Shown piece after piece: positions 1 to 22,729 of a stretch of DNA of 32,000 nucleotides (its first letter is position 1; each line of letters begins with the position of its first letter). Below the pieces are notes generated by a model that did no database searches, was not told the DNA's origin, and was given only the letters and a program-made list of their open reading frames with translations. Source of the DNA: Patescibacteria group bacterium. Its GTDB lineage: Bacteria; Patescibacteriota; Patescibacteriia; 2-01-FULL-39-33. Made by a program: the position numbers and the translations under genes. The stretch is taken from NCBI GenBank assembly GCA_041649575.1, contig JBAZMW010000004.1, positions 90,001-122,000 of the forward strand. Reading direction: 5' to 3'.

Positions 1-93
1 TGGGTTGGCGCCAATCATTCACCGGATGATTGGCGGCGTTCGCCTTCGGCTCACTGCCAACCCGTTCAAATCCCAGCCTTTCTGTCGAAAGGC

Positions 94-130
94 AAATTTT
101 ACTCCCGCTTCGCGGGGTAAAATTTTCCTT
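94..130. terminator. Bidirectional hairpin between the convergent plus-strand tRNA-like fragment and the minus-strand tRNA-Ser
   Basis: AAATTTTAC / GTAAAATTT outer stem enclosing a CCCGC-TTC-GCGGG hairpin, with A/T runs on both sides. Confidence 0.45.
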
Positions 131-13901: not shown

Positions 13902-14083
13902 GGGCGGTTAGCTCAGTTGGTTAGAGCGCCTCGTTTATTTACCCTGTTGAATAGGCACATTTAGCTCAGTTGGTTAGAGCGCCTCGTTTACACCGAGGAG
14001 GTCAGAGGTTCGAATCCTCTAATGTGCAAATAGTCCAACAGGGCGGGTCGAGGAGGTCAGAGGTTCGAATCCTCTACCACCCA
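13902..14083 (+). other. Split tRNA-Val-like gene: 5' half 13902-13937 and 3' half 14049-14083, separated by a 111-nt insert that contains tRNA-Val(UAC)
   Basis: The 5' half is GGGCGGT TA GCTC AGTTGGTTA GAGC G CCTCG TTTA. The 3' half is CGAGG AGGTC AGAGG TTCGAAT CCTCT ACCACCC A. The acceptor pairs at 6 of 7 positions. All other arms are identical to the inner tRNA. Confidence 0.6.
13955..14028 (+). tRNA. tRNA-Val(UAC)
   Basis: Acceptor GCACATT/AATGTGC at 7 of 7, D-arm GCTC-AGTTGGTTA-GAGC, anticodon stem CCTCG/CGAGG with loop TTTACAC, and T-arm AGAGG-TTCGAAT-CCTCT. Confidence 0.9.
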
Positions 14084-14151
14084 ATAGTTAACAGGGCAGG
14101 TTGAGGGGTTGTGCGTATCAGTGTAAACTTTAAACAAGTAAAATAATAAAA

Positions 14152-14419: not shown

Positions 14420-14495
14420 GGGCTGTTAGCTCAGTTGGTAGAGCATCGCGTTTGCAACGCGGGGGTCGGGAGTTCGAATCTCCCACAGTCCACCA
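14420..14495 (+). tRNA. tRNA-Ala(UGC), CCA encoded
   Basis: Acceptor GGGCTGT/ACAGTCC with the G3:U70 Ala identity pair, anticodon loop TTTGCAA, T-arm GGGAG-TTCGAAT-CTCCC, and 3' end ACCA. Confidence 0.9.
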
Positions 14496-19551: not shown

Positions 19552-19602
19552 TCTGGATTCAAAAATTTTTTGATAAGCAATAATCGTAATCACAATTCTT
19601 GC

Positions 19603-22729
<3,127 letters not shown>

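Follow-up and report, generated by a model that had tools for sequence, protein, structure and literature searches.

The 32-kb stretch of DNA analysed here (the window, from contig JBAZMW010000004.1 of a Patescibacteria group bacterium) carries on its plus strand a complete tRNA-Val(UAC) gene that lies within the anticodon loop of a second, interrupted tRNA-Val gene. The original prediction had divided this locus into five parts, and each of them was found at the coordinates it gave. The outer 5′ half (13902–13937) comprises the acceptor 5′ strand GGGCGGT, the D arm, the 5′ strand of the anticodon stem and the bases TTTA. It is followed by a leader, TTTACCCTGTTGAATAG (13938–13954), by the inner tRNA-Val(UAC) gene (13955–14028; acceptor stem GCACATT/AATGTGC, discriminator A73, CCA not encoded), by a trailer, AATAGTCCAACAGGGCGGGT (14029–14048), and by the outer 3′ half (14049–14083), which comprises the 3′ strand of the anticodon stem, the variable loop, the T arm, the acceptor strand ACCACCC and A73. 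The leader together with the preceding TTTA forms a conserved left-end motif, TTTATTYACCC, and the trailer ends in the right-end motif GGGCRGGY (14041–14048). Leader, inner gene and trailer make up an insert of 111 nt, 74 nt of which are tRNA and which contains no open reading frame (ORF); we refer to this insert as the cassette.

The inner gene was the sole tRNA called in the interval by ARAGORN and by Rfam (RF00005, with 76 bits where the gathering score is 29; anticodon UAC), and it has the form of a canonical bacterial tRNA, with an RF00005 cloverleaf and a 7-nt anticodon loop; it is predicted to be functional. The outer halves were located by nhmmer with a tRNA-Val profile built from relatives, so that positions in the tRNA are model positions; the 5′ half matched positions 1–36 (E = 1.9e-8) and the 3′ half positions 39–74 (E = 3.9e-5). 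As predicted, the cores are duplicated without change: 13908–13937 is identical to 13961–13990 over 30 nt, and 14049–14076 to 13994–14021 over 28 nt. The 8-bp inverted repeat CCCTGTTG/CAACAGGG, which forms the 5′ and 3′ arms of a stalk at 13942–13949 and 14036–14043, is exact, and the outer acceptor stem GGGCGGT/ACCACCC, as read from the sequence, is paired at six of seven positions with one C4–A69 mismatch. The spacer motif was also said to return after the outer 3′ end, and the local alignment bore this out: 14084–14125 on the plus strand aligns to the trailer and the start of the 3′ half with a score of 33 (0/1000 shuffles), representing a decayed third copy (ATAGTTAACAGGGCAGGT followed by TGAGGGGT..TGTGCGTATC). 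When 13902–14084 was folded, the minimum free energy (MFE) structure was a nested double cloverleaf (−67.6 kcal/mol, z = −3.4; 1 of 200 shuffles was as good).

Two origins of this anatomy were rejected. An assembly artefact is incompatible with the presence of the same architecture in independent assemblies from different projects, and the junctions share only 4 nt. Nor is the 5′ side a simple tandem duplicate, the sequence past TTTA being unrelated between the two copies.

Recurrence of the nested layout and covariation of the stalk

The gene rplS lies just 5′ of the locus, and its closest relatives (at most 74% identity) belong to Patescibacteria, also known as the candidate phyla radiation (CPR), near Candidatus Buchananbacteria. 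The compared loci and contigs are labelled with L-numbers (L002, L003 etc.), the window being WIN. The order rplS, tRNA-Leu(GAG), tRNA-Val(UAC), a small membrane protein gene and tRNA-Ala(UGC) is kept in most of the 80 relative loci, and most of these syntenic loci have a Leu–Val spacer of 10–40 nt and a single un-nested tRNA-Val. The comparison of syntenic loci, which had been proposed as a check, revealed empty sites in most and occupied sites in some. Since the sole promoter-like site found in the promoter scan precedes rplS and a clear terminator follows tRNA-Ala, the sequence suggests that the region from rplS to tRNA-Ala is probably one transcript. A promoter within the cassette leader was ruled out: the tRNA begins ~4 nt past the stalk, and the scan placed a site only 5′ of rplS. 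The tRNA-Ala gene of the window (14420–14495) has an encoded CCA end, which both the inner and the outer tRNA-Val lack, and its start, GGGCTGTTAGCTCAGTTGGT, is one base off the region of the outer Val 5′ strand.

The profile search found the three-part layout, with breakpoints at positions 36/39, in WIN, L003 and L077, and messier versions of it in L022, L068, L013 and L090. A metagenome scan with a pattern in which both junction motifs were joined across a tRNA-sized gap returned nine loci, eight of them true nested tRNA-Val genes, in varied gene neighbourhoods. After the removal of duplicates, nine distinct Patescibacteria genomes bearing a nested tRNA-Val were obtained. All nine have common junction motifs, …CG-TTTATTYAC-CCC… on the left and …GGG-CRGGY-CGAG… on the right, and the cassettes with a tRNA as cargo always lie in a tRNA-Val gene, whatever the neighbouring genes are. 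The proposal of a tRNA-carrying insertion, one of the three origins put forward in the original prediction, is thereby supported by conserved ends in nine genomes, by different contexts and by an inner gene that is foreign at some loci (see below).

The stalk sequences vary and yet stay complementary, as in CCCTGTTG/CAACAGGG, CCCCATTAAAT/ATTTAATGGGG, CCCCGTTAGAT/ATCTAACGGGG and CCCGCCAAAAT/ATTTTCGGCGGG. In the nine-sequence alignment the stalk is 95.6% paired, and 5 of the 10 pairs have changed on both sides; none of 500 shuffles matched the observed values, and every slid register collapsed. Because the pairs covary across nine genomes while shuffles and slid registers fail, stalk pairing, judged from the alignment, is maintained during sequence drift. 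The four stem pairs beside the junction, CTCG/CGAG, are nearly invariant, and the 27:43 pair is mismatched in three of the nine genomes; this pattern would agree with co-conversion of short flanking tracts but does not prove it. The junction itself reads in the alignment as an internal loop of 8 × 5–6 nt. A kink-turn did not fit this junction upon inspection of the alignment, and neither did a bulge-helix-bulge: in place of two 3-nt bulges with a 4-bp helix between them, an internal loop (UUUAUUCA opposite (G)CAGGC) separates the stalk from the anticodon stem.

Among the window ORFs and those of the metagenomic nested loci, no recombinase, transposase or homing endonuclease adjoins the nested genes consistently. 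In L087, the start of an ORF with a LAGLIDADG-like motif (…YAVGLITADGSLSNDRRHL) lies ~100 nt 3′ of the nested tRNA-Val and is broken off by the contig end. A phage or plasmid carrier of the cassette was not found in three scans of viral contigs, where the matches were chance-like and without tRNA context, apart from small hairpins of L107/L110 and of L112/L116/L129 that have the stalk motif. In L112, L116 and L129, which come from IMG/VR and are labelled viral, hairpins of the form TTCACCCCGTTAGAT-7 nt-ATCTAACGGGGTTCAGG share the left end and stalk of the cassette. In L065 (1360–1531, minus strand), a tRNA anticodon loop is broken by a masked run of ~110 N; the insert is unreadable and therefore uninformative.

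Outer halves and turnover of tRNA-Val alleles

Sequence comparison shows the outer halves to be best read as relics. When they are rejoined with the loop bases CAC supplied, each pair is called as tRNA-Val. Literal joins of the window halves either leave a 4-nt loop or put a Leu(UAG) or Ile(UAU) anticodon on a valine body, never Val, and in all nine genomes the 3′ stem is preceded by GGT or GGC. The outer gene is no canonical tRNA, having half-length matches only and no contiguous cloverleaf with an anticodon loop. An ARAGORN check in intron mode, with introns up to 160 nt permitted, called no outer gene, and no Rfam intron or ribozyme family matched either the window locus (E ≤ 10) or ten related loci (E ≤ 1). 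The covariance models, which detect no ribozyme core, speak against a group I or group II intron, and the failure of excision to restore a 7-nt loop with a cognate anticodon speaks against a tRNA intron of any kind. Neither a splicing endonuclease nor a ligase was seen among the ORFs of the window. The intron-like element considered in the original prediction is therefore unsupported (no Rfam match, no outer call, no join giving a valine anticodon). A split tRNA released by RNase P/Z is unsupported as a decoding tRNA, in that its anticodon loop is gone and insertions or deletions affect the D or T loop of many outer copies; it might nevertheless have a non-decoding role as RNA.

The decay of the outer genes is visible in several genomes. 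In five of nine, either a GC-rich hairpin has been inserted into the D or T loop or the D arm is missing, as it is in L081; in L087, the outer halves are mismatched to each other. The close relatives L077 and L085 have inner genes identical over 74 nt, whereas four substitutions and a 40-nt insertion separate their outer halves. The closest relative found, L090, has a neighbouring protein that is 72% identical; there, a window-type outer 3′ end has shrunk to 16 nt (…AATCCTCTACCACCCA) and lies ~110 nt 3′ of a different functional allele. In L013 (3458–3980), a heavily expanded relic tRNA-Val has several hairpin families at the D loop, at the boundary of the anticodon stem and loop, and in the T loop, and it encloses a functional tRNA-Val, which is placed between its variable region and T arm. 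L006, L013 and L090 share long inserts of the form GGGYAGAAA…CCCRGGAACAG, for which Rfam has no matching family. In L090 (2750–3100) and L007 (1140–1255), tRNA-Ala(UGC) is accompanied by upstream 5′ relics with large D-loop insertions, and no 3′ relic lies downstream, so that the phenomenon extends beyond tRNA-Val.

The same alleles occur as inner and as outer genes. The acceptor GCGCGCT belongs to the inner gene of L083 but to the outer genes of L081 and L086, and GGACGCT, which is inner in L086, marks the outer gene of L003. Outer-type alleles are found as intact working genes in other genomes, so that occupied and empty alleles coexist among relatives. The outer stem of the window, GGGCGGT/ACCACCC, is one base from the inner type GGGTGGT/ACCACCC of L003 and L022, which accounts for its single C–A mismatch; in its inner stem, GCACATT, the window has a variant of the GCACGCT type, which is frequent among Buchananbacteria. 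Among close relatives (L001–L098), the acceptor stem of tRNA-Val(UAC) is hypervariable (GCACATT, GCGCACT, GGGCACT, GCACGCT, GGGTGGT, GGGCAGT and GGACGCT), the remaining molecule being nearly constant. L002 and L005 are reciprocal, the relic allele in each being the functional allele in the other.

In L087 and L088, inner and outer genes are 68–69% identical to each other and have different D-loop types, whereas each of them is 84–88% identical to tRNA-Val genes of other genomes. These identities indicate that the inner gene in L087 and L088 is foreign and not a local duplicate. The 5′ half and leader are doubled in L077, and this doubling, like the third copy at 14084–14125 of the window, suggests repeated invasion of the working gene. 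An older layer 5′ of 13902 was also sought, with no significant similarity found (980 of 1000 shuffles scored as well).

GIY-YIG nucleases and relatives with other cargo

A second tRNA locus of the window brings a nuclease gene into association with a tRNA relic. In minus-strand order, it comprises an 18-nt 5′ relic of tRNA-Ser recognised by sequence comparison (TGGATAGGTGCTAGAGTG, 597–580), GC-rich hairpins including GGGCAGGCTGAG between the relic and the ORF (489–579), an ORF for a GIY-YIG nuclease of 85 amino acids (aa) that consists of the catalytic domain only (488–231; found by tblastn; Pfam PF01541 with 56.4 bits against a cut-off of 22.6), and an intact tRNA-Ser(CGA) (218–130), which would be the replacement gene of a nuclease-bearing cassette. 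Six homologues of this nuclease were sampled on long contigs regardless of tRNAs, and the layout was the same in all six contexts. At 1–129 (minus strand), 3′ of tRNA-Ser, lie a hairpin, AAAATTTTACCCCGCGAAGCGGGAGTAAAATTT, and a structured segment, GGGATTTGAACGGGTTGG…GCCAACCCA, which reaches the window edge and belongs to a family of ~100-nt D-loop insertions also seen in the outer tRNA-Val of L003 and in a tRNA-Ala relic of L090; this segment may represent what is left of the old tRNA-Ser at its 3′ end.

Nucleases of this kind also accompany tRNA-Val. In L002, the functional tRNA-Val is separated from a displaced 3′ relic by sequence encoding a GIY-YIG nuclease, and in L021 a GIY-YIG ORF directly follows tRNA-Val, both being above the Pfam cut-off. 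The relics of L002 are two parts of one old gene with the acceptor stem GGGCACT/AGTGCCC, the last 22 nt of which are identical to the working gene of L005; L002 is therefore a nested tRNA-Val in which the insert consists of a tRNA and a nuclease. A search of all loci with the L002 and L021 proteins gave eight GIY-YIG ORFs, the one beside tRNA-Ser in the window among them, all within 108 nt of a tRNA gene (joint P ~1.5e-5), and in six of the eight a fragment of the adjoining tRNA lies on the far side of the ORF. In L254, a homologue of the L002 nuclease (61% identical) is situated at the rplS–Leu–Val locus between a 5′ tRNA-Val relic and an intact tRNA-Val. Other GIY-YIG subfamilies accompany Leu, Arg, Val(GAC) and Tyr genes. 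In L257/L258 (1040–1520), repeated 3′ relics of tRNA-Tyr flank a GIY-YIG ORF on both sides, and each relic has two GC-rich hairpins in its T loop. The spacers between relics and ORFs are GC-rich hairpins, one of which, CCTGCCTGCCGGCAGGCAGG of a Leu relic, is also found in L022 and L088, where it lies in the D loop of the outer tRNA-Val.

The ends of the cassette were found with other cargo as well. In the window, a 105-nt insertion in the 23S rRNA gene (22396–22500, minus strand) has the left-end motif TTTATTTACCCCGTTAAAT (22484–22466), a stalk (…ATTTAACCGGGG) and a small-hairpin cap with no tRNA. It occupies a hairpin loop at model position ~226 and makes an extended hairpin with a fold of −46.8 kcal/mol. 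The left-end motif and stalk are also present in L007 and L013, within the D loops of tRNA relics; the element there points in the direction opposite to the tRNA, which speaks for a DNA-level insertion. The 23S rRNA gene (19602–22728, minus strand), which is followed by 5S rRNA, is ~200 nt longer than the Rfam model and has further insertions at model positions ~282 (63 nt), ~313 (24 nt) and ~585 (18 nt); the window contains no 16S rRNA gene.

Origin of the nested locus and its significance

We consider it probable that the nested locus is an ORF-less tRNA-replacement cassette which settled in the anticodon loop of an older tRNA-Val gene and which has spread by homing-like gene conversion. According to this reading, a cassette of ~111 bp (leader, tRNA-Val(UAC), trailer) would enter the anticodon loop of a resident tRNA-Val gene and replace it at the DNA level: the old gene would be split into two non-functional relic halves, and the inner gene would take over the supply of tRNA-Val(UAC). 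The whole region would probably be co-transcribed from the rplS promoter. Leader and trailer would pair as an 8–11-bp stalk stacked on the old anticodon stem, which would hold the relic halves together and present the inner tRNA as a separate domain to RNase P and the 3′ processing. The stalk is probably maintained for its role in the RNA, where it would direct the relic halves to pair with one another and not with the identical core of the working tRNA. Spread would proceed by homing-like gene conversion or homologous recombination, the tRNA core of the outer halves providing the homology arms, and the inner gene, as an intact target itself, would be open to repeated invasion, giving Russian-doll layers. 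The initiating break would probably be made by small tRNA-associated GIY-YIG nucleases acting in trans; nuclease-bearing versions exist in L002, in L254 and at the tRNA-Ser locus of the window.

Several points weigh against this reading. At the window junction, the loop bases CAC are apparently gone with no target duplication, which fits no known insertion chemistry. The Val cassette of the window is without a nuclease gene, the only GIY-YIG nuclease in the window belonging to the tRNA-Ser-associated subfamily, and the nucleases, being of ~85 aa and consisting of the catalytic domain only, have no recognisable DNA-binding domain, so that their site-specific cleavage is putative. The intact anticodon arm of the inner gene leaves it unexplained how an occupied allele would be protected from the nuclease, and how a resident-type tRNA became cargo between leader and trailer is unexplained too. 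Finally, seven of the nine outer genes retain a perfectly paired acceptor stem, and none of the three substitutions that distinguish the stems of L077 and L085 breaks a pair; the intact outer stems could thus reflect continuing selection on the outer RNA rather than a recent origin.

Four other explanations were weighed. An autonomous hairpin transposon resembling a miniature inverted-repeat transposable element (MITE) or a REPIN (repetitive extragenic palindromic, REP, doublet forming a hairpin), with the ends TTYAC-CCCCGTTAAAT … ATTTAACGGGG-CAGGN and tRNA-Val as merely one of its cargoes, is in our view unlikely. Such an element would be moved by a single-strand enzyme of the IS200/IS605 or RAYT (REP-associated tyrosine transposase) type, or by a Xer/integron tyrosine recombinase, and its target would be hairpin loops of structured RNAs. 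It would explain why the same ends enclose a small hairpin in the 23S rRNA gene and lie, reversed, in relic D loops of L007 and L013; the covariation of the stalk suits a structure-recognising enzyme, and the 8–11-bp stalk arms are terminal inverted repeats. However, no transposase or recombinase is present in the window or beside any nested locus, two or three loop bases have apparently been lost instead of a target site being duplicated, and the left and right junctions have no common core, as a tyrosine recombinase would need. Moreover, there are just two or three copies in 32 kb, and all the copies with tRNA cargo reside in tRNA-Val, which homology-dependent spread fits better than loop targeting. 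A target motif of the IS200/IS605 type was unsupported, the bases to the left of the element being variable (TTTA, TAAC, TAAA, AAAG). Joined head to tail, the cassette ends would form 11-bp inverted arms around a ~9-bp centre, in which GTTAAAT/ATTTAAC has what we take to be a resemblance to a XerD arm or attC core; this is a lead only.

We regard as doubtful, too, that the nested RNA is functional as a whole, be it as a split or extended-arm tRNA-like molecule freed by RNase P/Z, as a processing scaffold, or as a true intron served by a cleavage–ligation system of CPR bacteria. The MFE structure is indeed the nested fold, the stalk covaries, the outer acceptor and T stems are mostly intact while their sequences differ between genomes, and the relics contain insertions that form stable hairpins with loops of the UUCG or GAA type, like those of rRNA expansions. 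Against this, no join gives a valine anticodon or a normal loop, and there is no intron call, ribozyme match or bulge-helix-bulge junction. The outer gene has lost its D arm in L081 and consists of mismatched halves in L087, it has changed between L077 and L085 around a constant inner gene, and in L090 it is down to 16 nt. The diversity of the outer stems is inherited from once-functional genes and is thus no sign of present constraint.

The footprint of an integrase, that is, phage- or integrative and conjugative element (ICE)-type integration into tRNA-Val with partial duplication and later deletion of the element body, is very improbable. The tRNA genes are classic integration sites at which fragments are common (PMC9897764), in an archaeal case a 5′ fragment was left upstream of a replaced tRNA-Thr (PMC3293823), and short direct repeats of the tRNA 3′ end do occur downstream in L038, L053 and L079. 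Integration should, however, yield a complete copy along with a partial one duplicating the same part, whereas the window flanks are complementary halves of a different gene, the acceptor of which is unlike that of the inner gene; in addition, the insert is only 111 bp long with ends that pair with each other, neither the window ORFs nor the surroundings of the metagenomic nested loci included an integrase or recombinase, and no carrier appeared in the viral-contig scans. Local recombination debris from tandem tRNA-Val genes (unequal crossing-over, slippage, deletions), the third origin named in the original prediction, is largely refuted and hardly credible any more: although the 3′ half and trailer occur three times at a 55-nt period with GAGG microhomology at the unit boundaries and the inner and outer cores of the window are identical, debris leaves unexplained the identical junction motifs and covarying stalk in nine genomes with different neighbours, as well as the 68–69% identity of inner and outer genes, and it does not agree with a 5′ side that has no tandem duplicate or with non-nested relatives that have a single tRNA-Val and no stalk at the locus.

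The proposed tRNA-replacement cassette can be compared with known systems. The original prediction knew of no bacterial tRNA-in-tRNA arrangement, and our literature search, which covered open-access full text and in which absence is not proof, agrees; with the same limit, no description of GIY-YIG/tRNA-relic cassettes in CPR bacteria was found. We rate the locus as a variation on known kinds, namely homing cassettes and tRNA-targeting mobile DNA, rather than as categorically new. The closest parallels include the free-standing GIY-YIG homing endonucleases Seg of phage T4, especially SegB in the tRNA cluster, which perform intronless homing (PMC2988022); defunct or ORF-less homing partners can be mobilised in trans (PMC2790892). 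In both T4 and the CPR loci, a small GIY-YIG gene lies beside tRNA genes, and the proposed break and gene conversion would co-convert the flanks. Unlike the Seg system, the present one resides in cellular CPR genomes, its nucleases of ~85 aa consist of the catalytic domain only and have putative cleavage activity, and the Val cassette of the window has no nuclease gene; moreover, the CPR cassette is located within the tRNA gene, supplies a complete replacement tRNA and leaves relic halves. Elements that leave integrase-generated tRNA fragments (PMC9897764, PMC3293823) likewise target a tRNA gene, preserve its function by sequence which they supply, and leave old fragments in place. Those elements, however, are 2–23 kb long and encode a recombinase, whereas here a 111-bp ORF-less insert bears an entire, different tRNA-Val allele between complementary halves.

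Interrupted tRNA genes are otherwise known from bacterial group I introns in the anticodon loop, archaeal bulge-helix-bulge introns, and split or permuted tRNAs (PMC3984707, PMC4090602, PMC4390854). The nested locus shares with them the insertion in the anticodon loop (in relatives also in the D and T loops), a closing helix, and the presence of related inserts in different tRNA and rRNA genes. It differs from them in having no ribozyme, no bulge-helix-bulge and no valid spliced anticodon, so that function is restored by a replacement gene. Bacterial 23S rRNA genes may contain intervening sequences (IVS), which are hairpin insertions excised by RNase III. The 23S relative of the cassette, which carries a small hairpin in a hairpin loop and extends its stem, looks similar; IVS are not known to carry genes or to occur in tRNA genes. 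In fungal mitochondria, endonuclease ORFs (e.g., in Allomyces atp6) bring a replacement gene end, and the resident end becomes a pseudogene. There too, a selfish insert carries a copy of the part it disrupts and the displaced part decays alongside, but these are organelle protein genes with partial replacement, whereas here a whole gene is nested.

More broadly, and only tentatively, we propose that CPR bacteria may harbour a selfish class of homing cassettes which target tRNA genes and offset the damage by a whole replacement tRNA, not by splicing. This class might include nuclease-bearing forms, with GIY-YIG enzymes specific for Ser, Val, Leu, Arg and Tyr genes, and ORF-less stalk forms moved in trans; serial re-invasion could produce Russian-doll tRNA genes and drive the unusually fast turnover of tRNA-Val acceptor stems among close relatives, and the stalk, perhaps with the outer stems, could act as an RNA-level insulator against mispairing. 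If this mechanism is true, it would be a third way to occupy an essential RNA gene without killing the host, beside splicing and integrase-type replacement of the gene end, and would include an ORF-less form analogous to MITEs. It offers a testable process for rapid tRNA allele turnover and acceptor-stem diversification within a clade. The nested locus also shows a route to split or interrupted tRNA genes in bacteria, a question argued so far mainly from archaeal examples. On the practical side, nested halves and relic fragments are missed or misread by tRNA finders and inflate the apparent "intergenic" space of CPR genomes. Finally, the isotype-specific association with tRNA relics gives a plausible role to the tiny members of an abundant family, those annotated as "GIY-YIG nuclease family protein".

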